From NCBI GenBank assembly GCA_021818475.1, contig JAKADZ010000001.1:5997-69996 (forward strand): 64,000 nucleotides of DNA, in the 5' to 3' direction. The position numbers and the translations under genes were made by a program. The stretch comes from Nanobdellota archaeon (GTDB lineage Archaea > Nanobdellota > Nanobdellia > Pacearchaeales > GW2011-AR1). This document shows positions 4,641-51,420 of this stretch, piece after piece. Positions within the stretch are counted from its first letter, which is position 1; each line of letters opens with the position of its first letter. Below the pieces are notes generated by a model that was not told the DNA's origin, searched no databases, and saw nothing but the letters and a program-made list of their open reading frames with translations.

Positions 4641-4849
4641 ATTTTTAGGGCTTAAAGGTTTAAAAATCTTGTTGGAGAGTAGAGTAAAAATTTTCCCTAC
4701 CCTTAATAACCCCGTCGTGAAAATTTTGTTTTAAAGATTTTATTTCGCAAAAACAAAGAATTTTATTTTTTAATAAAAAATAGAATTAAATCAGGAAATT
4801 TTTGAAATTTTTTACTGCTAAATTCTTATCTTTTGAGGAAAGTTTGATA

Positions 4850-5170: not shown

Positions 5171-5299
5171 TGAGCCTACACGGATTTGAACCGTGGACCC
5201 CTGCCTTTCTTAGGATTCAATCGAGTCCTTGAAAACAAATTCCTAAACGGGATTTGCTCTTATAAGAGCAGTGCTCTAACCGGGCTGAGCTATAGGCTC
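5171..5299 (-). tRNA. tRNA-Ile (anticodon UAU) with an intron of about 54 nt at 37/38
   Basis: Manual fold: acceptor GAGCCTA/TAGGCTC, D arm GCTC-AGCCCGGTTA-GAGC, anticodon stem CTGCT/GGCAG, loop CTTATAA, T arm CACGG-TTCAAAT-CCGTG, discriminator A. Loop positions 32-35 (CTTA) pair with intron TAAG, followed by a 3-nt bulge, as in a bulge-helix-bulge (BHB) splice motif. Confidence 0.8.
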
Positions 5300-6365: not shown

Positions 6366-7721
6366 CTAAATTTTCTTAACCATATAACTATCTTCCAATT
6401 TATATCCCAACTTACGATAATATTCTCTTACTCCTATTCCTGAGATTACCAGAATTTTTTTTGCACCCTCTGCTTTTGCTATTTTTTCAGCTTCTTTCAT
6501 CAGCATTTTCCCCATTCCTCGATGCTGGCTTGCTGCCGAAGATTTTTTATGAATTTCTAATGATTTTCCATAAACATGAAGTTCTCTGACAATTGCAGTT
6601 TTATCTTTTCTTGGTCTAAGTCTCAAAAGTCCGAATAGAATATCTTCATCATTTACTATTTCAATGAAAAATTCTTTGCCTTCAGAAGCATCATATCTTG
6701 TAACTTTCAATTTCATATTAATATTTTCAGTAGGATTGAACCCAATCTCTCTGAATCTTATTTCAACAATTTTATTTTTTTGTCTTCTTAATTTTTCTTC
6801 AACGTCTTTTCTTAAGTCAATTTTAGTAGTCCCTGCAATAAGATATTCCGGGGGAATCTCCCTCATAATTCTCATGACTCTGCAATATCGCGGAACAACT
6901 CTCAGCATTTCAATAAGGAGATTTTCAATCTGTTCTTTTGTATACGGCTTGTATCTCTTTTTCCAGAAATCTTTTTCAAGTTCTGCCCCTTTAATTATCT
7001 GGCACGGATAAATTTTAAGCTGATCTGGTTTAAATCTTTCATCAGAAAAAATTTTTTTGAAAAGTTCTAAATCTTTTTTTTCATTGCTTCCTGGAAGGCC
7101 GGGCATTATGTGATAACCAACTTTAAATCCGGCGTCTTTCAGCGCCTTTGTCGCATCAGCAACATCTTTCACAGAATGTCCCCTCTTTATCTTTTTGTAA
7201 ATTTTATCATCGGGCATCTGAACCCCAAGCTCGACTCTTGTTACACCAAAATCTCTCATTTCTTTTATGTACTGAATGCAGTCATCAGGCCTGGTCTCGA
7301 CGCAAAGTGCAACACATCTATGTTTGGATTTTTCATTTAATTTCTGTGCTTCAGTCAAACTCTTTGAAACCTTTTCATTGAGGGCATCAAAACATTTTTT
7401 TATAAAATCATTTTTGAATTTCTTTGGATACTGCAAAAAAGTCCCCCCCATAATTATCAGTTCAATTTTTTCAGTCGGATGATGCATAACTTCAAATGCT
7501 TTTATTCTTGCTTTAACCTGCTCATAAGCGTCGTATTTAACTTCAGACGCTCTCATGACAACAGGACTTTTTGGGGTATAACTTTGGGGGACATTTAAAG
7601 AAGGGCAATAAGTGCATGTCCCATGTTTGCAAGCTCTTGGAGGAAGCATTACTGCTACAGGAGTAATCCCGGAAATAGTCTTAGTCGGTTTTCTTATTTC
7701 ATTTTTCTTTGGATTTAACAT
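6366..7721 (-). CDS. elp3: Elp3-type radical SAM/GNAT tRNA modification enzyme
   Basis: 451 aa with an N-terminal CKHGTCTYC cluster motif and a C-terminal GNAT motif QHRGMGKMLM, colinear with archaeal Elp3. Confidence 0.85.
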   Translation of the reverse strand: MLNPKKNEIRKPTKTISGITPVAVMLPPRACKHGTCTYCPSLNVPQSYTPKSPVVMRASEVKYDAYEQVKARIKAFEVMHHPTEKIELIIMGGTFLQYPKKFKNDFIKKCFDALNEKVSKSLTEAQKLNEKSKHRCVALCVETRPDDCIQYIKEMRDFGVTRVELGVQMPDDKIYKKIKRGHSVKDVADATKALKDAGFKVGYHIMPGLPGSNEKKDLELFKKIFSDERFKPDQLKIYPCQIIKGAELEKDFWKKRYKPYTKEQIENLLIEMLRVVPRYCRVMRIMREIPPEYLIAGTTKIDLRKDVEEKLRRQKNKIVEIRFREIGFNPTENINMKLKVTRYDASEGKEFFIEIVNDEDILFGLLRLRPRKDKTAIVRELHVYGKSLEIHKKSSAASQHRGMGKMLMKEAEKIAKAEGAKKILVISGIGVREYYRKLGYKLEDSYMVKKI

Positions 7722-7761
7722 AATATCTCCTTATCGATATTCCTTTTAAAATTATCTAGAA

Positions 7762-7998
7762 TTATTTTTTATTCTCACGCTTTATAACAAAATAGTAAAT
7801 TAATGCTCCGATGAAATAAGTTAATATAATCACAAGAACCCAGATTATTTTTTCAGTGTCATTTTTGAATTTTCTTTTTACACAATCAATAAGCATTAAA
7901 ATCCAGAATACGAATGCAAATACTGCAAGCCCGAATGCAATTAACGCAAAAAAGAATCCAAAAAACCCGACTCCCCACATCATGTTTGTCCAATCCAT
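7762..7998 (-). CDS. Small membrane protein, PLD-nuclease N-terminal (PLDc_N)-like
   Basis: 78 aa with two TM helices and the pattern WILMLIDCVKR...IIWVLVIILTYFIGALIYYF. Confidence 0.6.
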   Translation of the reverse strand: MDWTNMMWGVGFFGFFFALIAFGLAVFAFVFWILMLIDCVKRKFKNDTEKIIWVLVIILTYFIGALIYYFVIKRENKK

Positions 7999-8058
7999 AA
8001 TTTAACTAATGAAAAAGAGTTTAAAAATATTTTTAAAGATTATTTCCCTGCCTTATCT

Positions 8059-8358
8059 GTGACAGAAAAAAGATTAGTTGCTAAAAAACCAGTTGCAAAG
8101 AAAAAACCTAAACCCCTGACAGAAGAGGAATATAATTATTCCCTTGAACAAGAAGTTATTAATATACTAAAATTAAGAGGACTTTATTCTGATATAGAAG
8201 AATTTGCAAAAAGATATTACCGTTCATGTTCTCCAAATATGCGGAAAAATTATCCTAAATTTGAATATTTCAAGGAATTTTTAGAATATCAAACCCAGGA
8301 ACACATAAAAAATCTCGAGAAAATTGTGAGGCAAAAATATTCCAAGGGCTTGCCTTAA
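8059..8358 (+). CDS. Hypothetical Lys-rich protein (GTG start)
   Basis: 99-aa ORF with no in-frame ATG near the 5' end and no recognisable motif. Confidence 0.4.
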   Translation: MTEKRLVAKKPVAKKKPKPLTEEEYNYSLEQEVINILKLRGLYSDIEEFAKRYYRSCSPNMRKNYPKFEYFKEFLEYQTQEHIKNLEKIVRQKYSKGLP

Positions 8359-8408
8359 TAAAACATCTTTTCTAATCACTAAATCCTTTTAAATTAATTT
8401 TACTTTAT

Positions 8409-8474
8409 CGTCGTATGGAAATCAGCCTTGAGCAAGACTTTCAGTGGGAAAGTCAGGCGAACGAAACCGGAGGC
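8409..8474 (-). repeat. Diverged family A unit
   Basis: atcagccttgagcaagactttcagtgggaaagt matches atcagccttgagcacactttcaaggggaaaatg of the 4850 array. Confidence 0.6.
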
Positions 8475-8536
8475 GAGAGTTTTCGCGAATGCAAAGAAAA
8501 TCTTAAATGCAATGAGCGGGGGCTCGAGTAAGTCGC
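8475..8536 (+). repeat. Family C repeat copy abutting the start codon of the MTAP-APRT gene
   Basis: gagagttttcgcgaatgcaaagaaaatcttaaatgcaatgagcgggggctcgagtaagtcgc aligns with the minus strand of 5409..5466. Confidence 0.7.
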
Positions 8537-9823
8537 ATGGGGAAATTAAAGATTGGTATAATCGGAGGGAGTGGACTGGAAGATCCAAATCTCCTCGATG
8601 ATTATAAAGAAAAAGAGGTGGATACTCCGTTTGGTAAACCTTCATCTAAATTAATCACAGGAAAATTATTCGGAATTGATGTTGTAATAATTTCACGCCA
8701 CGGAAAGAAACACGAGATTCCTCCGACGCAGGTGAATAATAAAGCAAACATTTTTGCACTAAAATATGAGGGATGCAAATACATTTTGGCAACAACTGCA
8801 GTTGGTTCTTTAAGAGAAGAAATCAAACGCGGCGATTTTGTAATCCTTGACCAATTCATTGATTTTACAAAAAGAAGAGATGTAACTTTTTATGACAAAT
8901 TTGAATTCGGGGCAATTCATACTCCGATGGCAAATCCATTCTCTGAAAAATTGAGAAAAAAATTAATTGAAGCATGTTCTGAATTCAATTTCTCTCATCA
9001 TAAAACCGGGACAGTTATTACAATCGAAGGTTCAAGATTTTCAACAAGAGCAGAGAGTTATATGTTCCGCCAATGGGGGGCAGACGTAATAAATATGTCA
9101 ATAGCTCCAGAAGCAATTTTAGCAAATGAAGCAGAAGTTGAATATGCAACAATAGCAATGACTACAGATTATGACTGCTGGAAAAACGATGAGGAGCCGG
9201 TGAGCTGGGAGATGGTAAAAGAAATTATGAAAGATAATGTAGAGAAAGTAAAAAAAATTTTATTGAGGGTTGTTGAATCTTTTTCAAGGGAAGAAGAAAT
9301 AAGGAAGTTAAAAGAAAATATCAGAACTATTCCTGATTTCCCAAAACCCGGGATTATGTTCCGCGATATTACTACATTGCTGAAAGATAAGGAAAATGTG
9401 AAAAAGCTAATTGATCTTTTTTATGACAGATATAAAGAAATGGAAATAGATGCTATCGCCGGAATAGAATCGAGGGGATTTGCACTTGCGGGAATGCTTG
9501 CAGGCAGATTGGGTACAGGATTGGTTTTAATAAGAAAACCGGGAAAACTTCCTGCTGAAACAATTTCAGAAGTTTATAATCTGGAATACGGGGTTGACAG
9601 CGTTGAAATTCATAAAGATTCAATTTCTCCCGGACAAAAAATCCTTTTAATAGACGATTTAATAGCAACAGGCGGAACAGCCGGAGCATCATGCAAATTA
9701 ATCGAAGCACTTAAAGGGGAAATTGTCGAATGTTGTTTTGTAATCGAACTTCCCGATTTAAAAGGAAAAGAAAAATTAGCAAGATATCCTGTTTTCTCTC
9801 TGATTAAGTTTGAAGGCGAGTGA
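8537..9823 (+). CDS. mtnP-apt: Fusion protein: 5'-methylthioadenosine phosphorylase (N-terminal) plus adenine phosphoribosyltransferase (C-terminal)
   Basis: 428 aa. The N-terminal ~255 aa carry IGIIGGSGL, ISRHGKKHEIPP and TTDYDCW. The C-terminal ~170 aa carry PDFPKPGIMFRDIT, IAGIESRGF and LLIDDLIATGGT. Confidence 0.85.
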   Translation: MGKLKIGIIGGSGLEDPNLLDDYKEKEVDTPFGKPSSKLITGKLFGIDVVIISRHGKKHEIPPTQVNNKANIFALKYEGCKYILATTAVGSLREEIKRGDFVILDQFIDFTKRRDVTFYDKFEFGAIHTPMANPFSEKLRKKLIEACSEFNFSHHKTGTVITIEGSRFSTRAESYMFRQWGADVINMSIAPEAILANEAEVEYATIAMTTDYDCWKNDEEPVSWEMVKEIMKDNVEKVKKILLRVVESFSREEEIRKLKENIRTIPDFPKPGIMFRDITTLLKDKENVKKLIDLFYDRYKEMEIDAIAGIESRGFALAGMLAGRLGTGLVLIRKPGKLPAETISEVYNLEYGVDSVEIHKDSISPGQKILLIDDLIATGGTAGASCKLIEALKGEIVECCFVIELPDLKGKEKLARYPVFSLIKFEGE

Positions 9824-40881: not shown

Positions 40882-40953
40882 GGCGATTGTAGTTCAGTGG
40901 CAGAACGCGCGACTGTGGCTCGCGTAATGGGAGTTCGATTCTCCCCAATCGCC
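40882..40953 (+). tRNA. tRNA-His (anticodon GUG) with genome-encoded G-1
   Basis: G-1 precedes acceptor GCGATTG/CAATCGC, with C73 opposite G-1; anticodon stem CGCGA/TCGCG, loop CTGTGGC, T arm GGGAG-TTCGATT-CTCCC. Confidence 0.9.
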
Positions 40954-41009
40954 CTTAAAGAAAAAGCAGGGGAAGATTGCATTTGGACAAACAAAAAGGA
41001 GGAAAGAAA

Positions 41010-41426
41010 ATGAATATATTATTTATCTGTAAATACAACGCATTCCGTAGTAGGATTTCTGAAGAATATTTCAAAAAGATAAATAAAAATCCTAAAGTGG
41101 AAGCAATAAGTCGGGGATTTATTATGGATACAGATTCTGACTCAGAACAAAAAAAGCTATCAAAACAACTTCTTGGAATAGATATCTCTAAAAGAAAACC
41201 TTTGCCGATAACACTTAAGGATCTCATAAAATCTGATTTGATAATTGTTGCTGCAGATGACATTCCCAAGATAATGTTCAATTATCCTCTTGTGAATATT
41301 CAGAAAAAAGTTGTTATCTGGAAAATAAAAGATGAGCAAAGGCAAAACAAAGAAAATATTAAGCGCATTATCCTTAAGATTAAAAAGAAAGTTGACAAAC
41401 TCAATCAACAACTGGAGAAAAAATGA
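41010..41426 (+). CDS. Low-molecular-weight phosphotyrosine phosphatase / ArsC-like
   Basis: MNILFICKYNAFRS gives the CX5R(S) P-loop. The start was moved to ATG 41010, downstream of AAAGGAGG; the stop overlaps the hisS start (ATGA). Confidence 0.75.
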   Translation: MNILFICKYNAFRSRISEEYFKKINKNPKVEAISRGFIMDTDSDSEQKKLSKQLLGIDISKRKPLPITLKDLIKSDLIIVAADDIPKIMFNYPLVNIQKKVVIWKIKDEQRQNKENIKRIILKIKKKVDKLNQQLEKK

Positions 41427-42559
41427 ACACTGAATTAGTTAAAGGATTTCGAGATTACACCGGAGAAGATGCATGGAAAAGAGCAAAGATAAAAGAAATT
41501 ATGGAAAAGACTTTTCAGTCTTATGGGTTCGAGCCTGCAGAGACGCCGATAATTGAGAATGAAGAATTTGTTGTTGGGGAAAATCCTAACGACGAGGCAG
41601 TTTCTGATAGATATAAATTAGAAGACAAGGGAAAGAGAAAACTTGCTTTGAGATATGAGTTTACTTTTCAGCTGAAGAGAATTGCCAACAACAAGAAACT
41701 TCCATGGAAAAGATACGAGATTGGACCTGTTTTTCGTGATGAACCTGTAAGTGCAAATCGTGTAAGACAGCTGACTCAGTGTGATGTTGATGTTATCGGA
41801 AGCACATTAAGAGACGAAGCAGAAGTCCTGAAAACTTTTTCCGAAGCTCTGAAAAATCTTAATATAAAATTCAAAATTTATGTTAATAACAGAAAACTGC
41901 TCAATGAAATTCTGGATGAGCTGAAGATTGAAGACAAAAATAAAGAGCAGGTAATAAGAGAGATAGACAAACTTGACAAACTTTCAAAAGAGGAAATAAA
42001 ATCCAACCTGAAAAAATTAAAGGCAGAAAAAGCGCTTGACATTTTCACGAAGCCGGAGTCTTATTTTGAAAAATATTCTGCGTATAATGAAATTAAAGAA
42101 CTGAAAAAATTCTGCAGGGAATACAAAGTTGATTTTGAATTTGCTCCTTTCCTTGCGAGAGGTCTGGCATATTATAACGGAAGTGTCTTTGAAATTAAAA
42201 CTGATAAAATAAAAGAGACAATCTGTGGCGGAGGAAGTTATATGATTAAAGGAATTCAGGCAACAGGAATCTCAGCAAGCATTGAGCGGCTCGAACTTCT
42301 TGCTAAAATAGAAGATGGCTCTGAAAAATATCTCGTTGTTTCTCTTGACGAAGATAAAAAAGCAATTGAACTCGGCCAAAAACTTAGAGAATCAGGAAAA
42401 ATAGTTTCAACATTTTACGGCAAGCCGAGCAAGGCGCTTGATTATGCTAATTCATACAAATACGGAAAAGTTATCTTCGTTGGAGCTGACGAAGTTAAAT
42501 CGGGAAAATTCAAAGTGAAGGATATGATTTCTGGCCGAGAGACGAGTTTAAAGGTTTAG
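41423..42559 (+). CDS. hisS: Histidyl-tRNA synthetase (short form)
   Basis: 378 aa with class II motifs (VKGFRDY, FRDEP...R.LTQCDVDVIG) and a C-terminal anticodon-binding fold (KYLVVSLDED...VIFVGADE); the stop is TAG. Confidence 0.8.
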   Translation: MNTELVKGFRDYTGEDAWKRAKIKEIMEKTFQSYGFEPAETPIIENEEFVVGENPNDEAVSDRYKLEDKGKRKLALRYEFTFQLKRIANNKKLPWKRYEIGPVFRDEPVSANRVRQLTQCDVDVIGSTLRDEAEVLKTFSEALKNLNIKFKIYVNNRKLLNEILDELKIEDKNKEQVIREIDKLDKLSKEEIKSNLKKLKAEKALDIFTKPESYFEKYSAYNEIKELKKFCREYKVDFEFAPFLARGLAYYNGSVFEIKTDKIKETICGGGSYMIKGIQATGISASIERLELLAKIEDGSEKYLVVSLDEDKKAIELGQKLRESGKIVSTFYGKPSKALDYANSYKYGKVIFVGADEVKSGKFKVKDMISGRETSLKV

Positions 42560-42593: not shown

Positions 42594-45344
42594 ATGGTTA
42601 ATCTAACTGAAGCTCAAACAAGAAAGGAATTGATTGATCCTATTTTGGAAAGGACGGGATGGAAAGTTAAAGGACATTATGTTAAGGAAGAAATTAACCC
42701 TGTCAAATCTAATTTTCTAACTAAAGAATACGTTGGTCTTGAGGCAGGGATAGAAAGAAATGTTGACCGATTTATAGATTATTTATTACTGGATGAAGAT
42801 AGAAGCCCTCTTGCAATAATTGAAGCAAAAAAAACTTCTGTTAGTGTTGAAAAAGGAGAAATTCAAGCAAGAACGTATAGAGATGATATTGAAAAACAGA
42901 TTAAAATTAAAATTCCAATTTTCTTAACTAATGGAACAACTTGGTATTATGTTGATGATTTAGACAGAAGGAGGCAAGTTCTCTTACCTTTCTCACAAAA
43001 AGATTTGCATAGAATAATTAGTTTAATGCAAAAGAGGAAAGATCCCTCAAATGTTAAAGTCAGTTCTACAATTCTAAATAGAAAGATGTGCGTTGAAGCA
43101 GTTAAGACAGTATTGGAACATTTTTCAAAAGGACATCGGGAAGCTCTTATTAATATGGCTACTGGAACAGGAAAAACAAGAGTAGCAATGGCTTTGATAG
43201 ATTGTTTGATAAAATCAGAATACGCTCAAAAAGTTCTGTTTGTTGTTGATAGAATTTCTTTGGGGAATCAAGCAAAAGAAAAAGGATTTAAGAAATTTTT
43301 CCCAGAAAGCCCTATTTGTGAATTAAATGAAGAGGGGTATTCAAGCAGTGCGAGATTTTATGTTTCCACAATTCAAACTTTAATGTCTCCGCAAAAACCA
43401 AGAGGAAAGTTTTATGAAAAATTTGGTCCTGGAGCATTTGACTTAATTGTTTTTGATGAAGCACACCGTTCTTACTATGATAAGAATAATGATATCTTCA
43501 AATATTTTGACGCTCTAAAAGTTGGGTTAACCGCTACTCCTTCTTCAGAGGAAACAAGAAATACTTTTGATCTCTTTAATTGCGATAATGGAAAACCCAC
43601 ATTCAGATATGATTATGATTCTGCAGTAAGAGACAAGATTTTAGCTCCTTATGTGGCGGAAATTATTGAGACAAGTGTTCTTTCATTAGGAATTGAAGGG
43701 AAAAAATTGAATAAAGAGTTACAACAGGCATTAAAGCAACAAGAAGAAGACCCAGAGAAATTTCAAACACCTGGTTCTAAATTTGAAAGATTTTTTACAG
43801 ATGAGAAGACTAATGAACTAATTATTAGAGAATTTGTAGATAGGTGTTATAAATCTGATGATAATAGACCTTGTAAGAGTATTTTCTTCTGTGCAAGTGT
43901 AAAACATGCAGAATCTTTGGAAAAATTATTCCAGAAACTTTATCCTTATTTGGCAAAAGATGTAAAGGTTATTACTTCTGACAAATCTCGTTATATGGAT
44001 GAGGTCAAGAGATTTGAAAAAAGAGATAGCCCAAGAATCGCTTTATCTGTGGGGGTTTTAGATACAGGGGTGGATGTTCCTGAAGTCATGAATTTAGTTT
44101 TTGTTAAACCCGTAATGTCTTCTATCAGATTCTGGCAAATGTTGGGAAGAGGAACAAGAAGTTTATCTGCTTGTGAAAATAAAGAATGGTTGCCAACAGA
44201 TAAGGATGGACAGCACATAAAAGAAGATTTTTTAATATTAGATTTTAAGTTTGGGGATTGGTCTAATGTGATGCAACATAAATTGAACGCTATAAAACAA
44301 AAATCTTCTGGAACAGATGCTAAGACAAGAATCTTTTTAGAACAAGTTGATGCTTTAGAAAAAAATCTAAGTGAAAAAGAAAGAAAGGTAGTGGAGAAAC
44401 AAATCATAGACACAATTAAAGAAATTGATATTGAATCTCCTTTGGTTATTGAAAAGAAAAATATAATAAAAAAGGTTATCTCTTCTAAATTTGATTTAAA
44501 GGAGCATGTTGAGGAATTAAGAAATGAAATAGCCCCCCTTTTAATCTATACTCCGTCGGAGAATTCAAAAGTTTATGGTTTTATCTCTCAATGTGTTAAA
44601 CTCTTTGATTGCATTAAAACAGGAAATAAAAACAAAATTGCTAAGATTGAGGAATTTGTTGTTACAAGAGCAGAGGCAATTTGGGACAAAAATTTAGATG
44701 CAATAAAACAAAAAAGAGACGATCTTATAAGAATACAAAAAGAACCTTTCTGGGAAGATATTACTTTTGAAGATGTTGATTTTTTAGTTAGAGAAATTTC
44801 TCATTTAATGATTTTTTATGAAGAGGAAAGAAAAGGAATGGTACGAGTTAATGCTCCTGATGTGGTTATGAAAGTTGAAAAAGAGGCAATGGAACTTAAA
44901 GAAGATGAAGACTTCAAAACTTTCTTAAATAATAATCCTCTCATGCAAAAAATTAAAGATAGTGAAGGAGTTACATCAAAGGAACTTTTAGTTATTGAAA
45001 AGAAATTAAGAGAGTTAAATCCTATGTTGACAATTGACAATATCCAACAAAGTAAAGACTTTATTTTATTTTTAAGAGATTTATTGGAAGTCAAGGGATT
45101 GCCTGACCCACAAGAGATGATTAAGTGGGAGTTTGATAAATTTGTTATGGATAAAAACGAGCATTACAATTCCCAACAACTAAAGTTTTTAAGGCTATTA
45201 GAACAGGTATTTGTAAGAGCTAAACATGTTGAACTAAAGAACTTTGCAGAACACCCCTTAGCAGAGGGAAGACCCTTAGATGCCTTTACTAAGGAACAGC
45301 TGGAGAAATTAGTCCAAAAATGTAATAGCTTAAAGTGGAAATAG
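42594..45344 (+). CDS. hsdR: Type I restriction enzyme R subunit (EcoEI-like C-terminal domain)
   Basis: 916 aa with N-terminal TEAQTRKELIDPILERTGW and the nuclease-like IDYLLLDE...IIEAKK, helicase motifs ATGTGKT and FDEAHR, and a C-terminal QQLKFLRLLEQVF region; the stop is TAG. Confidence 0.9.
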   Translation: MVNLTEAQTRKELIDPILERTGWKVKGHYVKEEINPVKSNFLTKEYVGLEAGIERNVDRFIDYLLLDEDRSPLAIIEAKKTSVSVEKGEIQARTYRDDIEKQIKIKIPIFLTNGTTWYYVDDLDRRRQVLLPFSQKDLHRIISLMQKRKDPSNVKVSSTILNRKMCVEAVKTVLEHFSKGHREALINMATGTGKTRVAMALIDCLIKSEYAQKVLFVVDRISLGNQAKEKGFKKFFPESPICELNEEGYSSSARFYVSTIQTLMSPQKPRGKFYEKFGPGAFDLIVFDEAHRSYYDKNNDIFKYFDALKVGLTATPSSEETRNTFDLFNCDNGKPTFRYDYDSAVRDKILAPYVAEIIETSVLSLGIEGKKLNKELQQALKQQEEDPEKFQTPGSKFERFFTDEKTNELIIREFVDRCYKSDDNRPCKSIFFCASVKHAESLEKLFQKLYPYLAKDVKVITSDKSRYMDEVKRFEKRDSPRIALSVGVLDTGVDVPEVMNLVFVKPVMSSIRFWQMLGRGTRSLSACENKEWLPTDKDGQHIKEDFLILDFKFGDWSNVMQHKLNAIKQKSSGTDAKTRIFLEQVDALEKNLSEKERKVVEKQIIDTIKEIDIESPLVIEKKNIIKKVISSKFDLKEHVEELRNEIAPLLIYTPSENSKVYGFISQCVKLFDCIKTGNKNKIAKIEEFVVTRAEAIWDKNLDAIKQKRDDLIRIQKEPFWEDITFEDVDFLVREISHLMIFYEEERKGMVRVNAPDVVMKVEKEAMELKEDEDFKTFLNNNPLMQKIKDSEGVTSKELLVIEKKLRELNPMLTIDNIQQSKDFILFLRDLLEVKGLPDPQEMIKWEFDKFVMDKNEHYNSQQLKFLRLLEQVFVRAKHVELKNFAEHPLAEGRPLDAFTKEQLEKLVQKCNSLKWK

Positions 45345-45373
45345 TTCACAAGTTATACAATTTATGAACAAAA

Positions 45374-45387
45374 AGGTGTATACACCT
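45374..45387. promoter_or_regulatory. Perfect 14-bp palindrome AGGTGTATACACCT (candidate operator)
   Basis: Abuts the TATA-like box of the downstream operon, whose first gene encodes a ribbon-helix-helix (RHH)-like protein. Confidence 0.55.
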
Positions 45388-45401
45388 AAATCTTTAAATA
45401 G
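45388..45401 (+). promoter_or_regulatory. BRE/TATA-like box AAATCTTTAAATAG
   Basis: Lies about 25 nt upstream of ATG 45423 and shares AATCTTTAAATAG with 27776..27789. Confidence 0.5.
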
Positions 45402-45422
45402 TAGCGATTTCTTATTTTTATT

Positions 45423-45596
45423 ATGGTTTTAAAGAATCATGATTTAAGCGGGGAAGAGAGGAAGATTGTTTCTACAAGATTGTATAAGAGTGAATTCCTT
45501 TTTTTCAAGAAACTATGTGACCAGGAAGGCAAAACAATAAATACAAAACTCCGAGAGATGATTAGAGAAGAGACTGGGTTGGAGGAGGAAGAATAA
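45423..45596 (+). CDS. Ribbon-helix-helix (CopG-like) small protein, candidate controller
   Basis: 57 aa, below the track cutoff: MVLKNHDLSGEERKIVSTRLYKSEFLFFKKLCDQEGKTINTKLREMIREETGLEEEE, which fits a beta-strand/helix/helix pattern. Confidence 0.55.
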   Translation: MVLKNHDLSGEERKIVSTRLYKSEFLFFKKLCDQEGKTINTKLREMIREETGLEEEE

Positions 45597-45754
45597 TGGG
45601 AGATGATTTAGATAAAGCAATAAAAATTGGATTAGGATTACTTGGGGGTTTTATTTTATTGAATATCTTGTTTCCTGAAATTAAATGTAAAGTATGTGGA
45701 AGAAGTTTTCCTTCTGGGAGAGAAAGATGTCCGCATTGTGGAGCGGAAAAATGA
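45596..45754 (+). CDS. Small TM protein with a C-terminal zinc ribbon
   Basis: 52 aa: MGDDLDKAIKIGLGLLGGFILLNILFPEIKCKVCGRSFPSGRERCPHCGAEK. Its start overlaps the previous stop (TAATG). Confidence 0.5.
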   Translation: MGDDLDKAIKIGLGLLGGFILLNILFPEIKCKVCGRSFPSGRERCPHCGAEK

Positions 45755-46014
45755 GTCTAGATTTTGATATTGAAAAAACTATAAAACCTTTTGTTAAAGG
45801 GAGTTCACTTGGTTTAATGATATGTTCCTTAATTCTTTTATTTATCCATTACAATTTTAATAAATACTTTGGATTTTTAGTTCCAAATTGGATAGTTTTT
45901 ATTTTATGGATATATTTTATTGGTAATTCAATTGCATTATTTCTTTTTTTAAGGAACAATTTATTTGAATGCCCCAACTGCAAAAGGAGGCATAAGGAAA
46001 GAAAAAATGGATAA
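45751..46014 (+). CDS. Two-TM small protein ending in a CPNC motif
   Basis: 87 aa from MSLDFDIEK, with an ATGA overlap to the previous gene. The track's longer version (45694) would overlap that gene by 61 nt. Confidence 0.5.
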   Translation: MSLDFDIEKTIKPFVKGSSLGLMICSLILLFIHYNFNKYFGFLVPNWIVFILWIYFIGNSIALFLFLRNNLFECPNCKRRHKERKNG

Positions 46015-46636
46015 TGAAGTAAAACAGAGAGTCTTTCAGCAAGTTATGGATATCTGGATCAATCCCGAGATAGAAAAAAGAAGAAAAGAAGGAATAATCA
46101 AAGATGGAACTCAAATAACTAAAATGCAAATTGTTTTTTCTTTAGACAATGGAAACAAAATAAGATTAAATGATGAAGTTAAGGCAATCATCACAGGCAA
46201 GGCTACAAGAAATATACAAAAAGGCGAAGCAATTTATGAGAAAGATCTAAGCGGGATTGAAAATATACAATTAACTGATGAAGACACTAATTGTGGACAT
46301 ATCACATTGTTATTATTTAAGAATAATTGGATAATCTGTTTTGATGCAAGATATAATAAAGATATAATAAAGGAACATATTATTGCTTCAAAAGAATTCT
46401 ATGAAAGTGCAAAAGAAAGTTTAGAAAAAAATAGATTAAGACCATTTTATGAAAATGCCTTTGCAGTTGCTGAACTTTCTGCTAAAGGAATTTTATTGAC
46501 ATTGCCAGATAAAAAAATTTTAGAGGGTAAAAACCACAAAGATAGGATTAAGAAATTTAGAAATTGGGCTGAACTTGGTAATGTGAAAATGGAATTTAAT
46601 ACAACACTCTCTAAATTAAATGGGTTAAGAAGTTAG
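46007..46636 (+). CDS. HEPN-like domain protein, ended by a TAG inside the domain (the frame stays open to 46738)
   Basis: Starts MDNEVKQRV, overlapping the previous stop. The C-terminal half (AFAVAELSAKGILL...NHKDRIKKF...LNGLRS*ARYLASDAFKKEDANKILVTIEEMIKFAE) follows the HEPN helix pattern across the TAG at 46634..46636. The extended frame ends in an ATGA overlap with the next gene. Confidence 0.6.
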   Translation: MDNEVKQRVFQQVMDIWINPEIEKRRKEGIIKDGTQITKMQIVFSLDNGNKIRLNDEVKAIITGKATRNIQKGEAIYEKDLSGIENIQLTDEDTNCGHITLLLFKNNWIICFDARYNKDIIKEHIIASKEFYESAKESLEKNRLRPFYENAFAVAELSAKGILLTLPDKKILEGKNHKDRIKKFRNWAELGNVKMEFNTTLSKLNGLRS

Positions 46637-46734
46637 GCAAGATACCTTGCTTCTGATGCTTTTAAAAAAGAAGATGCAAATAAAATACTTGTTACAATTG
46701 AAGAGATGATTAAATTTGCAGAGGATTCAATAAA

Positions 46735-47805
46735 ATGAAAACTAAGGATAAAATTAAATTAGAAGATGTTATTCTTAAAATTTTAGAAGACCAAATTAAA
46801 AAGAGGAAGAAAAAAATATCTAATAGAGAAATTAAAAAAATCACTCAAGATATAACTAAAAAATCAATCTTAAAACTTTCTGAAGAAACTAAAAAAAATT
46901 TAGATAAAGAGATAAAAAAGAGAGTTTTAGAGGAAGAAAAAATTAGAAATGGTTTTGAGAATAGGTTATATTCCAAATGGGAAAAAGCGATTAATCTGTA
47001 TGAGATTCTTGGAATAATATCTTTAGAAATTGCCGAAAATGTAAAAAAGAATATTTCTCAAACTAAAAAAGTTATGGGATTTAAAGAATCAGCAATTTTC
47101 AAAATTCATGCAAGAGCACTAAGAATTTATAAGGAAATTTTTTGCTTGATTAAATCGGGATATGTAGACGGAGCAAATGCAAGGTGGAGAAGTTTATATG
47201 AACTTACCGTTATATGCTTATTTTTATCTAAGAATAATGAGAATGTCTCAGAAAGATATTTGCGATATGAACCCGTTTTGGCATTAAGAGAAGCCGAAGA
47301 ATATAAAAAAAATTATAAGAGATTAAACTTTCGTTCACTTGGAAAAAAAGTTTTTTCAGATTTAAAGAAAGAAGTTAGAAAATTGGAAAATCAATTTGGA
47401 AGTGAATTTGTAGAAAGAGGAGATTATTGCTGGATTCCTAAGACAATTTTATCTAATAGAAATTTTGCTGAGTTAGAGAAAAATATTAAATTAAACAAAT
47501 GGAGACCTTTTTACAAATTTTCTTGTAATTTCGTTCACGGTGGACCACGAGGATTAAATTCTTCTGGGATGTTGAATTGGAATGCACAAAATATTTTATT
47601 AGTGGGTCCAACAAATTATGGATTAACAGATCCTATGCAAAACAGTGCAATTTCTCTTCTTCAAATAACTTCTTGTTTATCTGTCCTTAAACCAAACTTA
47701 GAAGTCGCTATTTTTTCAAAAATAATGGACTTATACATTACAACCCTCCAGAATGAATCAATAAAAATACAAAAACAAATTGAGAAGGAGGAGAAACAGA
47801 AATGA
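46735..47805 (+). CDS. Hypothetical 356-aa protein, DUF5677-like (tentative)
   Basis: The core CLIKSGYVDGANARWRSLYELTVICLFL resembles the DUF5677 helix pair as I recall it. There is an ATGA overlap with hsdS. Confidence 0.55.
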   Translation: MKTKDKIKLEDVILKILEDQIKKRKKKISNREIKKITQDITKKSILKLSEETKKNLDKEIKKRVLEEEKIRNGFENRLYSKWEKAINLYEILGIISLEIAENVKKNISQTKKVMGFKESAIFKIHARALRIYKEIFCLIKSGYVDGANARWRSLYELTVICLFLSKNNENVSERYLRYEPVLALREAEEYKKNYKRLNFRSLGKKVFSDLKKEVRKLENQFGSEFVERGDYCWIPKTILSNRNFAELEKNIKLNKWRPFYKFSCNFVHGGPRGLNSSGMLNWNAQNILLVGPTNYGLTDPMQNSAISLLQITSCLSVLKPNLEVAIFSKIMDLYITTLQNESIKIQKQIEKEEKQK

Positions 47806-48980
47806 AACAACAAATGCAAACTAATCACATTGAATGGAGAGAAATAAGGTTAAAAGAGATTGCTCAATTCATAAACGGACGAGCATTCAAACCTTCAGAT
47901 TGGGAATCTAATGGGAAATTAATAATCCGTATTCAGGATCTTACTGGTTCAATTACAAATCCAAATTATACAACTAAAACTTTTGAAGACAAATATTTGG
48001 TTAGGAAAGGAGATTTGTTAATCTCTTGGTCTGCAACCTTAGACGCTTTTATTTGGAGTAAAGAAGAGGGGTGGTTAAATCAACATATTTTCAAAGTAGT
48101 TCCAGATAATAAATTTGTAGATAAAAAATATTTATATTATTTTGTAAAACAAACGATTAATCTTTTTCTTAATGAAACTCACGGGTCAACTATGAAACAT
48201 ATAACTAAGGGAAGATTTGAATCAATCAAAATTTTACTCCCTTTCTCCAATGGAAAACCAGACTTAAAAGAACAAGAGAGAATCGTTAATATTTTAGAAG
48301 GGGCAGAGAAATTAAATGAAAGAGGAAAGAAGATAGAAATTTTATTTGATGAATATTTGAAAAGTATTTTTTATGAAATGTTTTTGAAAGAAAAAGGAAA
48401 GTTTAAAGAAGTGTCATTAGGTGAAGTTTTTGAAATTGCAAGAGGGGGATCTCCAAGACCAATACAAAATTATATCACCAAAGAAAAAAACGGAATTAAT
48501 TGGATAAGAATAAGTGATACAAAAAATAACACCAAATATATTTATCAAACAGAAGAAAGGATAAAACCAGAAGGATTAAAAAAAACAAGATTAGTTCAGG
48601 AAGGAGATTTTTTATTATCTAATTCAATGAGTTTTGGTAGACCTTATATTATGAGAACAAAAGGATGTATCCATGATGGTTGGCTGGTCATTAGAGATGT
48701 AAATAAGGTAACTAACAATGATTATCTTTATTCTATTTTAAGTTCAGATTATCTTTATTCCCAATTTTTATCTTCTGTTGCGGGTACGACTGTTAAAAAT
48801 TTAAAAATTGAGGTAGTTAAAAAAGTGAAAATCCCTCTCCCCCCTCTTCCCCTCCAACAAAAATTTGCGAAGATTGTTGAACAAGTTGAAAAAATGAAAG
48901 AAAGCATTAATAAAACTAAACAAAAATCCGAAGAATTATTTAATTCTCTTGTTAGTAAAGGTTTCAGGGGGGAATTGTAA
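47802..48980 (+). CDS. hsdS: Type I restriction enzyme S (specificity) subunit
   Basis: 392 aa with two target-recognition halves, each starting W.E..L.E....I.G/ARGGSPRP and followed by conserved LPPLPLQQKFAKIVEQVE helices. Confidence 0.9.
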   Translation: MKQQMQTNHIEWREIRLKEIAQFINGRAFKPSDWESNGKLIIRIQDLTGSITNPNYTTKTFEDKYLVRKGDLLISWSATLDAFIWSKEEGWLNQHIFKVVPDNKFVDKKYLYYFVKQTINLFLNETHGSTMKHITKGRFESIKILLPFSNGKPDLKEQERIVNILEGAEKLNERGKKIEILFDEYLKSIFYEMFLKEKGKFKEVSLGEVFEIARGGSPRPIQNYITKEKNGINWIRISDTKNNTKYIYQTEERIKPEGLKKTRLVQEGDFLLSNSMSFGRPYIMRTKGCIHDGWLVIRDVNKVTNNDYLYSILSSDYLYSQFLSSVAGTTVKNLKIEVVKKVKIPLPPLPLQQKFAKIVEQVEKMKESINKTKQKSEELFNSLVSKGFRGEL

Positions 48981-48981
48981 A

Positions 48982-49959
48982 ATGAAAAAGATTGTTTATA
49001 TTGTTCTTATTGTCTTTGTAGGTTTTTTAATTGTTTCATTTATTTTTGATTTTCCAAAGTGGCTAAATTGGATTACTTTTGCATTCACAATATTCTCTTT
49101 TATTTATAATAATTGGAAGAATAAACCAGATGACTTAACTAAAGTGGAACAAAAACTTCAAACAATTATTGATGAACAAGAATCACAAAATGTTTCTGAA
49201 GAGAAGATAAAGATTTTAGAAAAAGAAAGGGATGAAATTGAGGCTTCGATAAAAGAAGTAAATATTAAACTTAATGAAGAAAAGATTTCCAAAGAAGAGT
49301 TAATAAGAGAACTAAAAGAGGATACCGAAGTAGTATTATTAATAAAACATGCAGAAGGAAATAAAGATGAACCGAAACCAATAAAAGACGCTTTGAAAAA
49401 TAGAGGATTTAGAAGTGTTAATTATGGAATGTATATTTTACCCCCTTATTTATCCCCGCACTTTAAAGAAACAGAGGAAATGAACAAATGGGTAACAACA
49501 AACATATTAAAGAAAATACCTCAAGACCATCGTTATAAAATGTCAATAATGTTTGTAGATTTAAAGAGGGTTCTTGTAAAAGAACAAGGAGAGAACCATA
49601 TGAAATCTATAATCGAAAAATTGGATTTTACTGATTTAGTTAGATTAGAAAAACTTAGTAATTTTATAAAAAAGAAAAAGAATATTTCTATAATGGACAT
49701 AATGCAAATCCCACATTTGATGAGATTAATAGAGATTGGGCATTTTGGATATAATGATAAAAAAATTATCTCAGAAAAAGAAAAAGAAATTTTAAAAGAT
49801 ATTGCAAATTTTTTAGGTTCAGAAGAACTTAAAACTAAAGAAATATATAAAATTTCTAAGGAAGAGTTAATAAAAATTTTAGAGAAGTATAATATAAATA
49901 AAAAAGAACAAATATCCGAAGATATAATGAAAAATAGTAAATTTTGGAGTCAATTTTAA
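48982..49959 (+). CDS. Membrane-anchored coiled-coil protein of unknown function between hsdS and hsdM
   Basis: 325 aa from MKKIVYIVLIVFVGFLIV, with two N-terminal TM helices, a charged coiled-coil segment and a ~200-aa unknown domain. It starts 1 nt after the hsdS stop. Confidence 0.6.
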   Translation: MKKIVYIVLIVFVGFLIVSFIFDFPKWLNWITFAFTIFSFIYNNWKNKPDDLTKVEQKLQTIIDEQESQNVSEEKIKILEKERDEIEASIKEVNIKLNEEKISKEELIRELKEDTEVVLLIKHAEGNKDEPKPIKDALKNRGFRSVNYGMYILPPYLSPHFKETEEMNKWVTTNILKKIPQDHRYKMSIMFVDLKRVLVKEQGENHMKSIIEKLDFTDLVRLEKLSNFIKKKKNISIMDIMQIPHLMRLIEIGHFGYNDKKIISEKEKEILKDIANFLGSEELKTKEIYKISKEELIKILEKYNINKKEQISEDIMKNSKFWSQF

Positions 49960-49962
49960 AAC

Positions 49963-51420
49963 ATGTTACACGCAGAACTTAAACAAAAAATAAGAAAATT
50001 ATGGGATAAATTTTGGAGTGGAGGAATTAGCAATCCTCTTCAGGCAATTGAGCAAATATCCTATTTAATTTTTATGAGAAAATTAGAAGATAGAGATGTT
50101 TTAGAAGAACAAAATGCAGTTCTTAAAGGGATTAAATACAAATCTATTTTTGCAGGTCATGAAAATTGTAAGTGGTCTGTTTGGAGTGAATATTCTTCTG
50201 ATAAAATCTTAGCCCATGTCCGAGATATGGTCTTTCCATTTATGAGAAATTTGGGAGAAGAAAATTCCTCTTATGCTAAATATATGAAAGATGCAAGTTT
50301 TTCTCTTCCAACAGCATCTCTCTTAATTGAAGCAGTTAGTATAATCAATGATTTGCATATTAAAGAGCAAAATCAGGACACTCAAGGAGACATATACGAA
50401 TATCTCTTGTCAGAATTGCAGACAGCAGGAAAAAATGGGCAATTTAGGACACCAAGACATATAATCAAGATGATGGTTGAATTAGCAAATCCAGAATATG
50501 GAGATAGAATTTTAGATCCTGCTTGTGGAACAGCTGGTTTCTTAGTTAATGCTTATGAACATATTTTAAGAACAAATCAAAAGAATGGAGTAAGTACTTT
50601 AACCCCTGAAAAAAAGAAAATCCTTGACGAAGAGTCTCTTTATGGGTATGATATTGATAGGACAATGGTTAGAATTGCAGTCATGAATTTAATGATGCAC
50701 GGAATAACAAATCCCAAGATTACTGGTGAAGATACCCTCTCAAAAAGATATAACGAAAACGGAGTTTATGATTTAGTTTTAGCAAATCCTCCTTTCAAAG
50801 GTTCTATTAATGAAAGCGAGAAATCAGATGAACTTACAATAAGCACAAGTAAGACAGAATTGCTTTTCTTAGAACTTATGTATAATTCTCTTTCAGTAGG
50901 CGGAAGATGTGCCGTAATAGTCCCTGAAGGTGTTTTATTCGGTAACTCAAATGCTCACAAGTCAATTAAAAAACTTTTATTAGAAAAGTGCCGTCTTGAT
51001 GCAGTTATCTCTATGCCCTCAGGAATCTTTAAGCCTTATGCAGGAGTATCAACAGCAGTCCTTTATTTCACAAAAGGGGAGCCTACAGAAAAGGTTTGGT
51101 TCTACAATATGGAAGCAGATGGTTACAGTTTAGATGATAAGAGAACAGAGCAACCCGATAAAAATGATATTCCTGATATCTTAGAAAGATTTGAAAAGAG
51201 AAACAAAGAAGACAACAAAAGCAGATTTGAAAAACACTTTTTTGTTCCAATTGAAGAGATTAAGGAAAAAGACTGGGACCTTTCAATCAACAGATACAAA
51301 AAAGAAAAAGAAAAAGAAGTTAATTACAGAGATAGCAAAGTCATTATTGAAGAAGCAAAGAAAGAAGTCAAAGAACTTTTGGAAGGATTTGAAGAGTTGG
51401 AAAAATTAATCACGGTATAA
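49963..51420 (+). CDS. hsdM: Type I restriction enzyme M subunit (N6-adenine methyltransferase)
   Basis: 485 aa with FRTPRHI, motif I DPACGTAGF, motif IV ANPPFKG, and an N-terminal HsdM_N-like helix bundle. Confidence 0.92.
   Translation: MLHAELKQKIRKLWDKFWSGGISNPLQAIEQISYLIFMRKLEDRDVLEEQNAVLKGIKYKSIFAGHENCKWSVWSEYSSDKILAHVRDMVFPFMRNLGEENSSYAKYMKDASFSLPTASLLIEAVSIINDLHIKEQNQDTQGDIYEYLLSELQTAGKNGQFRTPRHIIKMMVELANPEYGDRILDPACGTAGFLVNAYEHILRTNQKNGVSTLTPEKKKILDEESLYGYDIDRTMVRIAVMNLMMHGITNPKITGEDTLSKRYNENGVYDLVLANPPFKGSINESEKSDELTISTSKTELLFLELMYNSLSVGGRCAVIVPEGVLFGNSNAHKSIKKLLLEKCRLDAVISMPSGIFKPYAGVSTAVLYFTKGEPTEKVWFYNMEADGYSLDDKRTEQPDKNDIPDILERFEKRNKEDNKSRFEKHFFVPIEEIKEKDWDLSINRYKKEKEKEVNYRDSKVIIEEAKKEVKELLEGFEELEKLITV

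Follow-up and report, generated by a model that had tools for sequence, protein, structure and literature searches.

Type I restriction-modification (R-M) enzymes require an R, an M and an S subunit and nothing else, which raises the question why the operon of such an enzyme should carry further genes in its midst. The question is posed by positions 42594-51420 of a 64,000-nucleotide stretch of contig JAKADZ010000001.1 from a Nanobdellota archaeon (this whole stretch is referred to below as the window), where hsdR is followed on the same strand by eight tightly coupled open reading frames (ORFs), only two of which, hsdS and hsdM, encode R-M subunits. The region is an intact type I (EcoAI/EcoEI-like) R-M locus of a Pacearchaeota-like DPANN archaeon. 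We judge it rather probable that it represents an R-M lineage with two hypervariable cassette slots, one on either side of hsdS, and that the passengers of these slots serve as accessory defence or abortive-infection-type genes.

Architecture of the operon and its two slots

HsdR, HsdM and HsdS all score far above threshold against the type I models of Pfam, PADLOC and NCBIfam, and the locus possesses what defines a type I system: an HsdR nuclease with a superfamily 2 (SF2) helicase, an HsdM N6-adenine methyltransferase, and an HsdS with two target-recognition domains, encoded together. HsdR, whose translation contains the DEAH motif in the form FDEAHRS, matches ResIII of Pfam at 1e-37 and REase_I of PADLOC at 1e-91, and comprises HSDR_N, ResIII/DEAD, Helicase_C and EcoEI_R_C domains. 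The last of these reaches 28.6 bits (Pfam cut-off 24), and the NCBIfam model restrict_EcoAI (4e-71) scores 240 bits, below its cut-off of 550. The features of the locus are the following:

About 22 nucleotides (nt) upstream of hsdR, + strand: TATA-like box of hsdR itself, TTTTTATA
42594-45344, + strand: hsdR, type I restriction subunit of 916 amino acids, EcoAI/EcoEI-like, with Pfam and PADLOC matches
45344-45369, + strand: imperfect inverted repeat straight after the hsdR stop codon, GTTCACAAG...TTTATGAAC
45375-45386, strandless: perfect 12-bp palindrome GGTGTATACACC just upstream of the TATA box, a candidate operator
45393-45400, + strand: TATA box TTTAAATA, 22 nt before the ATG of p57
45423-45596, + strand: p57, 57 amino acids, first gene of the S/M unit, putative ribbon-helix-helix (RHH) regulator
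45596-45754, + strand: p52, one transmembrane (TM) helix and a C-terminal CxxC...CxxC zinc ribbon (DZR_2 at 5e-4, below the cut-off)
45751-46014, + strand: p87, two-TM protein with a CPNC end, always directly after p52
46007-46738, + strand: HEPN-domain gene of 243 codons from an R-M-associated DPANN family; pseudogene or truncated allele with an in-frame TAG at 46634-46636
46735-47805, + strand: gene for a DUF5677 protein, 356 amino acids, all-alpha; a gene-sized insertion relative to the related locus L035
47802-48980, + strand: hsdS, specificity subunit with two target-recognition domains (Methylase_S 9e-44)
48982-49959, + strand: p325, N-terminal membrane anchor, coiled coil, possible beta-alpha-beta-beta-alpha-beta domain (about residues 115-195), C-terminal helical domain
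49963-51420, + strand: hsdM, N6-adenine methyltransferase subunit, 485 amino acids, NPPF motif (N6_Mtase 1e-67)

The gap between hsdR and p57 measures 78 nt. The junctions that follow are a TAATG overlap (p57/p52), an ATGA overlap (p52/p87), an 8-nt overlap (p87/HEPN gene), a further ATGA overlap at 47802-47805 (DUF5677 gene/hsdS), and gaps of 1 nt (hsdS/p325) and 3 nt (p325/hsdM). GGAG-type motifs lie inside the end of the upstream gene at most of these junctions and often do so in other loci, in all of which the genes are joined by overlaps of 1, 4 or 8 nt or by gaps of 1-3 nt. A first-pass annotation of the window, made from the sequence alone, had described the region as a type I operon with embedded, translationally coupled non-R-M genes. 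The ORF and junction check and the profile matches bear this out and show the operon to be complete; the placing of hsdR, of the eight coupled ORFs on the same strand, and of the 78-nt gap with its palindrome and TATA box is correct.

Twelve related loci with HsdM proteins 62-95% identical to that of the window were compared, five of them sampled by HsdM alone (74-95%) and seven via a cargo gene; individual loci are cited below by their L numbers. All 12 follow the same plan: hsdR, p57, 0-7 cargo genes (slot 1), hsdS, 1-3 cargo genes (slot 2), and hsdM. Not one of them has hsdR, hsdS and hsdM side by side, the arrangement that the first-pass annotation would have expected of close relatives if the cargo were a recent unrelated insertion; a plain contiguous hsdR-hsdM-hsdS order is found in more distant type I relatives (HsdM 43-51% identical). 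The HsdM lineage is abundant across Pacearchaeota, Woesearchaeota and Nanoarchaeota at 74-98% identity and is spreading horizontally.

The boundaries of the variable part are sharp. In blastn comparisons with L006, L011, L031, L171 and L173, similarity ends at 45594, the stop of p57, and resumes at about 49959, the start of hsdM; within this interval, the only matches are two conserved portions of hsdS, one central (48228-48406) and one distal (48828-48990), and the HEPN gene in L011 and L031. The operon of L171 resembles that of the window closely in HsdR (96% identity), p57 (94%) and HsdM (94%), but its cargo is entirely different and its HsdS is only 34% identical. Completely or largely different cargo likewise accompanies HsdR proteins of 76-96% identity (L006, L011, L035, L171, L173) and HsdM proteins of 85-95% identity (L005, L171-L173); L011 has just the HEPN gene in common with the window, and L035 the HEPN gene and p52/p87. 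These alignments portray the cargo as a mosaic put together from four or more independent modules.

A DUF3800 gene stands in addition between hsdR and the p57 promoter in three of the relatives. DUF3800 passengers were noted in L029 (240-896), L172 (1-577), L173 (3167-3907), L176 (8406-9209), L006 (3299-4066) and L091 (6484-7254), and their position in type I operons is often the one between hsdR and the p57 promoter.

In the model that we favour, the locus would be read as two transcription units, hsdR alone and a second unit that runs from the palindrome and TATA promoter through p57, slot 1, hsdS, slot 2 and hsdM. Unrelated passenger cassettes would be exchanged between otherwise near-identical operons, likely through homologous recombination in the 3' end of p57, the conserved regions of hsdS and the 5' end of hsdM. 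Slot 1 would hold, in the window, a mobile p52/p87 pair, a knocked-out HEPN gene and a recently inserted DUF5677 gene, and slot 2 a lineage-specific, membrane-anchored p325. The passengers would most likely ride on the promoter and on the mobility of the methylase/specificity unit, and would form a second layer beside restriction after the paradigm of PrrC-EcoprrI.

The second transcription unit is suggested by a well-preserved control region. The TATA box is conserved in sequence and position in 10 of 10 loci that cover the region, even where HsdR identity has fallen to 67-68%. By the geometry of archaeal promoters, a TATA box this near to the ATG implies a leaderless or near-leaderless transcript, and because only 22 nt separate the two, we infer such a transcript starting at p57. 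The palindrome occurs a single time in the window (0.02 occurrences expected), and its core, near GTGTATACA (with 1-2 mismatches in some loci), is kept in 10 of 10 relatives, down to 67% HsdR identity. The inverted repeat behind hsdR, which may be a terminator or a second operator, is perfect in L006 and L011 (GTTCATAAA-N8-TTTATGAAC) and recognisable in 7 of 10 loci; it is absent from L035 and L173, and L174 carries a different repeat.

Directly behind this promoter stands p57 in all 10 loci covering the region (59-96% identity by tblastn; 57-61 amino acids in the relatives). The first-pass annotation had counted six cargo genes, this one among them, yet p57 is a conserved core gene of the R-M lineage. 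Its β-strand/helix/helix pattern and sub-threshold matches to RHH families (DUF6290, 0.026; ParG, 0.063; AvtR, E = 2.1) suggest that p57 is probably a small RHH autoregulator; a cleaner profile found no RHH match among PDB profiles. The arrangement recalls the controller (C) proteins of type II R-M systems, where the gene of a small DNA-binding protein likewise comes first in its transcription unit and a palindromic operator lies at its own promoter. C proteins, however, are of the Xre-type helix-turn-helix (HTH) kind and mostly time the endonuclease gene, whereas p57, a putative DNA-binding protein of RHH appearance, is part of a type I system and comes first in the S/M unit with its cargo rather than ahead of the R gene.

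The passenger modules

The p52/p87 pair in L035 is 90% (p52) and 93% (p87) identical to that of the window. L176/L177 have a further pair, 90% and 84% identical, which stands between hsdM and DUF3800-hsdS in a different type I system: its HsdM shares only 29% identity with that of the window, and its HsdR only 27%. Because a near-identical pair recurs inside an unrelated type I operon, p52/p87 can be viewed as a mobile two-gene module that has so far been encountered only inside type I operons. Searches of Pfam, PADLOC and PHROG with p87 returned no match.

The third gene of slot 1, annotated at first as HEPN-like, does belong to the HEPN superfamily through its full-length homologues (PF05168), but its boundaries had been misjudged: it is a 243-codon gene broken at 46634. 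Beyond the in-frame TAG, the frame stays open for 33 more codons up to a TGA at 46736-46738, where it overlaps the DUF5677 start by ATGA, and the apparent 98-nt spacer before the DUF5677 gene is the severed 3' end of the HEPN gene. The joined 243-amino-acid sequence retrieves 164 homologous proteins of about 244 amino acids, most of them with a precomputed PF05168 assignment; the truncated ORF itself has no significant Pfam match. The TAG falls on a nearly invariant Ser of the family motif LRxSARYL that the relatives encode by TCG or TCT, and the change from TCG to TAG is a single C>A substitution. The same nonsense allele is present in four independent assemblies from different samples; together with the Ser codon of the relatives, this identifies the mutation as recent and fixed. 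It removes the C-terminal helix and most of the conserved RxSARY motif.

Two other origins of the TAG codon were considered and discarded. Against read-through, pyrrolysine insertion or an altered code stand the 7 of 58 long ORFs of the window that end in TAG, hsdR included, and the Ser codon of the relatives; against a sequencing error stands the recurrence of the allele in four assemblies.

The HEPN family is repeatedly embedded in type I, III and IIG R-M loci. Among 137 immediate neighbours of 79 members, a Pfam scan recorded N6_N4_Mtase (15), ResIII (15), DEAD (12), MmeI_Mtase (8), N6_Mtase, HSDR_N and HNH (7 each), and Methylase_S (6), and in L006 and L172 the same slot is occupied by DUF4145 proteins. 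The HEPN domain is preceded by an uncharacterised N-terminal domain of 125 amino acids. The 243-residue protein (HEPN243) has no significant match among PDB profiles, and no ABC/Rad50-like ATPase domain was found in it with Pfam, NCBIfam or PADLOC. The RNase motif Rx4-6H is absent from the family consensus (LRxSARYL, which has no His), and a regular-expression scan of four full-length members revealed none. With the motif missing and the copy truncated, a PrrC-like RNase layer cannot work here.

The DUF5677 protein is a full-length member of PF18928 (1e-28; 100.8 bits against a gathering score of 27.1). L035 aligns with the window without a break through p57-p52-p87-HEPN and again from the start of hsdS. 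The alignment gap corresponds to 46735-47805, and the DUF5677 gene is therefore a precise, gene-sized indel with ATGA on both sides; it is probably a recent generic insertion. The family is represented by 2746 related clusters, with the nearest relative 44% identical. The protein matches PHROG 27456 at 2e-49, and the family also occurs in Bacillus phage SPR and on plasmids; in difference to the window's embedded copy, PF18928/PHROG 27456 genes are normally solitary and reside on chromosomes, plasmids and Bacillus prophage-like phage. Most DUF5677 proteins carry an RWRxLH(E) motif that resembles the Rx4H of HEPN proteins, and the window copy has Tyr (Y155) at the His position, a minority state (Tyr/Phe) in the family; hhalign comparison with the HEPN243 profile yielded a probability of 10%. 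A DUF3800 gene adjoins a DUF5677 gene in one actinobacterial metagenome-assembled genome.

The p325 family of slot 2 counts only 15 proteins, and in each of the four contexts that are informative their place is between hsdS and hsdM; the sole exception is one decayed remnant. This remnant (P0014; L008 10001-10717 / L009 2747-3463) is a 238-amino-acid ORF that joins the HsdR N-terminus to a p325-family C-terminus of ~110 residues. It is followed by a 5' hsdM fragment; the middle of the operon is deleted, and an NYN-domain gene is now situated there.

Structural comparison with Foldseek, one of the checks proposed in the first-pass annotation, was informative for neither of the two larger passengers in a decisive way. 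The DUF5677 model, of good quality (predicted local-distance difference test, pLDDT, 90.8), had no match with E < 0.25 in the PDB or BFVD. For p325, 11 of the 14 best PDB matches were Cas2 or VapD structures (best E 0.029, probability 0.99, TM-target 0.52), obtained with a poor AlphaFold2 model (pLDDT 58 overall and 55-68 in the central domain concerned). The conserved residues K122/E125/G126 do not match the Asp of Cas2, an acidic residue at the end of strand 1, and PDB sequence profiles provided no Cas2/VapD or other significant match. A Cas2/VapD-like central domain of p325 is, on this model, suggestive at best.

Accessory defence and its alternatives

Nested second-layer genes in type I operons are textbook knowledge, with PrrC in EcoprrI as the standard case. 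PrrC is kept silent by its own R-M system and is regarded as a back-up defence, triggered once restriction has been neutralised; links to R-M have been described for at least 16 HEPN clades (PMC3710099). Genes embedded in type I R-M, BREX, DISARM and Hma loci are often defence systems (bioRxiv 10.1101/2024.01.29.577857). In the window, three modules, namely the HEPN family, p52/p87 and p325, recur inside R-M operons, and hence bear the classical signature of accessory defence genes. To this extent, the first-pass proposal of a second defence layer receives partial support; a single six-gene set wired to the R-M complex does not.

The likeness to PrrC in the type Ic EcoprrI operon consists in a HEPN-superfamily gene, foreign to R-M proper, inside an hsd operon. 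The HEPN protein of the window differs from PrrC in that it has neither an ABC-ATPase nor Rx4-6H, carries the 125-residue N-terminal domain, and is truncated; its operon differs in gene order, in the domain of life of its host, and in the presence of several unrelated passengers. With the systems found through guilt by embedding (Payne et al. 2024; HEC/PDC models of PADLOC-DB v2), the window has in common nested extra genes that are often variable and often defensive. Its passengers, in contrast, match no HEC/PDC model convincingly, and embedding here is obligatory for the lineage, occurs at two fixed sites with sharp boundaries, and comes with a dedicated small gene for a putative regulator. 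Slot 2 is, moreover, biased to membrane proteins, and the words 'membrane' and 'transmembrane' are absent from the guilt-by-embedding preprint (bioRxiv 10.1101/2024.01.29.577857). The HEPN-R-M linkages, including DUF4145, that were described by Anantharaman et al. (2013) have a counterpart in the HEPN family of the window (PF05168), which recurs beside type I, III and IIG R-M genes; those associations are mainly bacterial, whereas the family of the window is DPANN-archaeal, has a novel N-terminal domain, and shows RxSARY instead of Rx4-6H.

Defence genes embedded in R-M operons are thus already known; the two-slot layout and its passengers have not been described. The first-pass term 'undescribed system' was overstated in view of the published general idea, yet the passenger families match no PADLOC model convincingly. 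What is distinctive of the lineage is the obligatory embedding at two fixed sites, the dedicated gene for a putative regulator with its promoter, the order of S before M, and the bias towards membrane proteins.

Several points weigh against a defence function of the passengers, a function that we infer from genomic context. To our knowledge, no virus of the host is known. PADLOC v2, with its 145 embedded candidates, recognises none of the cargo convincingly: p57, p52, p87 and the DUF5677 protein have no match, and the best hits of the HEPN ORF (PDC-M58B, E 0.0057) and of p325 (JetC, E 0.014) are not compelling. The matches behind the RHH identity of p57 are weak, the HEPN family lacks Rx4-6H and the window copy is cut short, and the model of p325 is of low confidence. 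The DUF5677 family is widespread, solitary and mostly found outside R-M contexts. In a genome scan based on an 11-sequence alignment and covering 80 genomes from many phyla, an R-M-type gene lay within the 8-kb flanks of DUF5677 at only about 6 of 80 loci, and the commonest family among its 144 immediate neighbours, N6_Mtase, was counted only four times. DUF5677 genes are enriched beside serine recombinases, and an ORF of this family tested in Enterococcus was not among the protecting ones (PMC12632615). The first-pass annotation had asked if homologues of the two large cargo proteins are recurrently flanked by hsdS and hsdM, and had held that a home mainly outside R-M loci would speak against its proposal: p325 always has these flanks and the DUF5677 protein does not, and of the cargo families the DUF5677 one alone lives mainly outside R-M, the HEPN family, p52/p87 and p325 not doing so.

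The constancy with which slot 2 contains membrane proteins may itself be a hint that they serve the R-M enzyme and not a defence of their own. According to this alternative, which we regard as unlikely but deserving of attention, some of the cargo is part of the R-M machine: p325, and perhaps p52/p87, would anchor or regulate the complex at the membrane where foreign DNA enters, p57 would set the dosage, and slot 2 would be a place that has to be filled for the enzyme to function, by analogous proteins that evolve fast. Each of the 12 lineage loci covering slot 2 has at least one gene in it, and 11 of these 12 (12 of 13 when L013 is included) encode at least one predicted membrane protein there. 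A TM helix is predicted in 13 of 17 independent slot-2 families, compared with 31% of the other ORFs of the window (binomial p = 1.3e-4), and 9 of the 10 families that come first after hsdS have a TM helix at the N-terminus (p = 1.7e-4), figures that derive from a crude hydropathy window scan. The confinement of p325 to the hsdS-hsdM position fits as well. The slot-2 proteins are, however, mutually non-homologous and range from 79 amino acids to 5-TM proteins of 361 amino acids; L174 has a soluble HEPN protein instead, and L172 adds to slot 2 a Schlafen/AlbA_2 + HATPase_c_4 + HTH protein (7585-8997) with a domain set typical of defence islands. The distant relatives, furthermore, manage with plain R-M-S, the three subunits that suffice for a type I enzyme.

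A more far-reaching view is doubtful in our estimation and is offered as speculation. The lineage would be a platform dedicated to cassettes: its operon, leaderless and under RHH control, would offer two fixed sites for exchange, and the one between hsdS and hsdM would require a membrane-anchored protein functionally coupled to the R-M complex. Such a protein may tether the enzyme at the DNA-entry site of episymbiotic cells, or may be an effector of suicide or exclusion that targets the membrane and is set free once restriction fails, and p52/p87 may be a membrane/zinc-ribbon module specialised for type I operons. If true, this would constitute a new organisational principle for R-M-linked archaeal immunity and add several new effector families.

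That the passengers hitch-hike as selfish or neutral elements (addiction modules, small membrane toxins, decaying ORFans) which accumulate in a recombination-prone, strongly retained operon with no defence benefit to the host seems to us a poor prospect, although parts of the locus have such an appearance. One passenger has already become a pseudogene, which is fixed in the population, most passengers of the relatives are ORFans with no family match, and the GC content of 0.25-0.30 within the cargo departs from the 0.33-0.36 of the flanks. The DUF5677 gene, moreover, is elsewhere at home on phages and plasmids and beside recombinases, and gave no protection when assayed. On the other hand, operons with just 27-29% identity between their R-M proteins share p52/p87 at 84-93%, the remaining reading frames are unbroken and joined with precision, and the large HEPN family (164 proteins) is conserved with R-M partners of three types. 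The original proposal of a single multi-component system for defence or sensing, made up of all six genes and wired to R-M, for which the tight translational coupling from p57 through hsdM might speak, can be given hardly any credence: near-identical operons carry different cargo, which rules against one six-gene system, the six never recur together (p57-p52-p87-HEPN in L035 lacks DUF5677 and p325, different partners accompany the HEPN gene in L011 and p325 in L005, L006 and L010, and L176/L177 have p52/p87 alone), and one member is a pseudogene.

The accessory-defence reading would give the locus a wider interest. DPANN archaea have tiny genomes and few recognised defence systems, and we know of no cultured viruses that infect them. 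According to a recent survey, R-M is under-represented in DPANN, and most of the systems found in them are single-gene ones (PMC12988326). A lineage with two hypervariable slots brings together candidate genes for archaeal defence or exclusion that escape PADLOC and Pfam; its operon is a neat illustration of cassettes being exchanged within an R-M locus, and a source of undescribed DPANN accessory genes. The sharp recombination boundaries, together with the conserved promoter and RHH-type gene, suggest how cassettes may be exchanged and co-regulated with methylation, and the bias towards membrane proteins between hsdS and hsdM is a directly testable regularity.

Surroundings of the operon

In the window, the operon has the genes for ribosomal proteins S27e and S24e, a diphthamide synthase and ScpA in its neighbourhood. 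Along with the naming of near homologues, these genes point to a Pacearchaeota-like DPANN archaeon as the source. The gene directly in front of hsdR (41423-42559) encodes a short, 378-amino-acid histidyl-tRNA-synthetase-like protein, and a tRNA-His(GTG) gene (40883-40954) lies 0.5 kb upstream of it, which places the R-M locus close to a tRNA gene. No integrase or att-like repeat was found by the tRNA-His gene and the R-M locus, and an Rfam search over 40-53 kb matched this tRNA and no other RNA family.

Insertion by a mobile element and a viral origin of the cargo were both considered and set aside. Mobile-element ends bordering the cargo, which the first-pass annotation had named as a sign of unrelated insertion, are not in evidence: no repeats of note flank the cargo or the locus, and the window encodes no homologue of an integrase or a type IV secretion system (T4SS). 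In IMG/VR, p87, p325 and the HEPN protein have no relatives, and DUF5677 alone has its PHROG assignment and one phage match.

Some relatives are differently placed. In L005 (5195-10830), L171 (10506-17426) and L174 (10585-18866), the operon adjoins genes for a TraC/VirB4-like ATPase, a TrbC/T4SS-pilin, an N6_N4 methylase and a tyrosine integrase; these surroundings look like an integrated conjugative-type element in DPANN archaea, and the window contains no conjugative genes of this kind.

Far from the operon, two features near the start of the window may be recorded. At 5171-5299 (- strand), Rfam identifies a tRNA of 129 nt that is presumably intron-containing and is absent from the output of ARAGORN. 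At 3-4730 (- strand), an open frame extends over at least 1576 codons and off the start of the window; its product has a hydrophobic segment at the N-terminus and is probably a giant surface protein.

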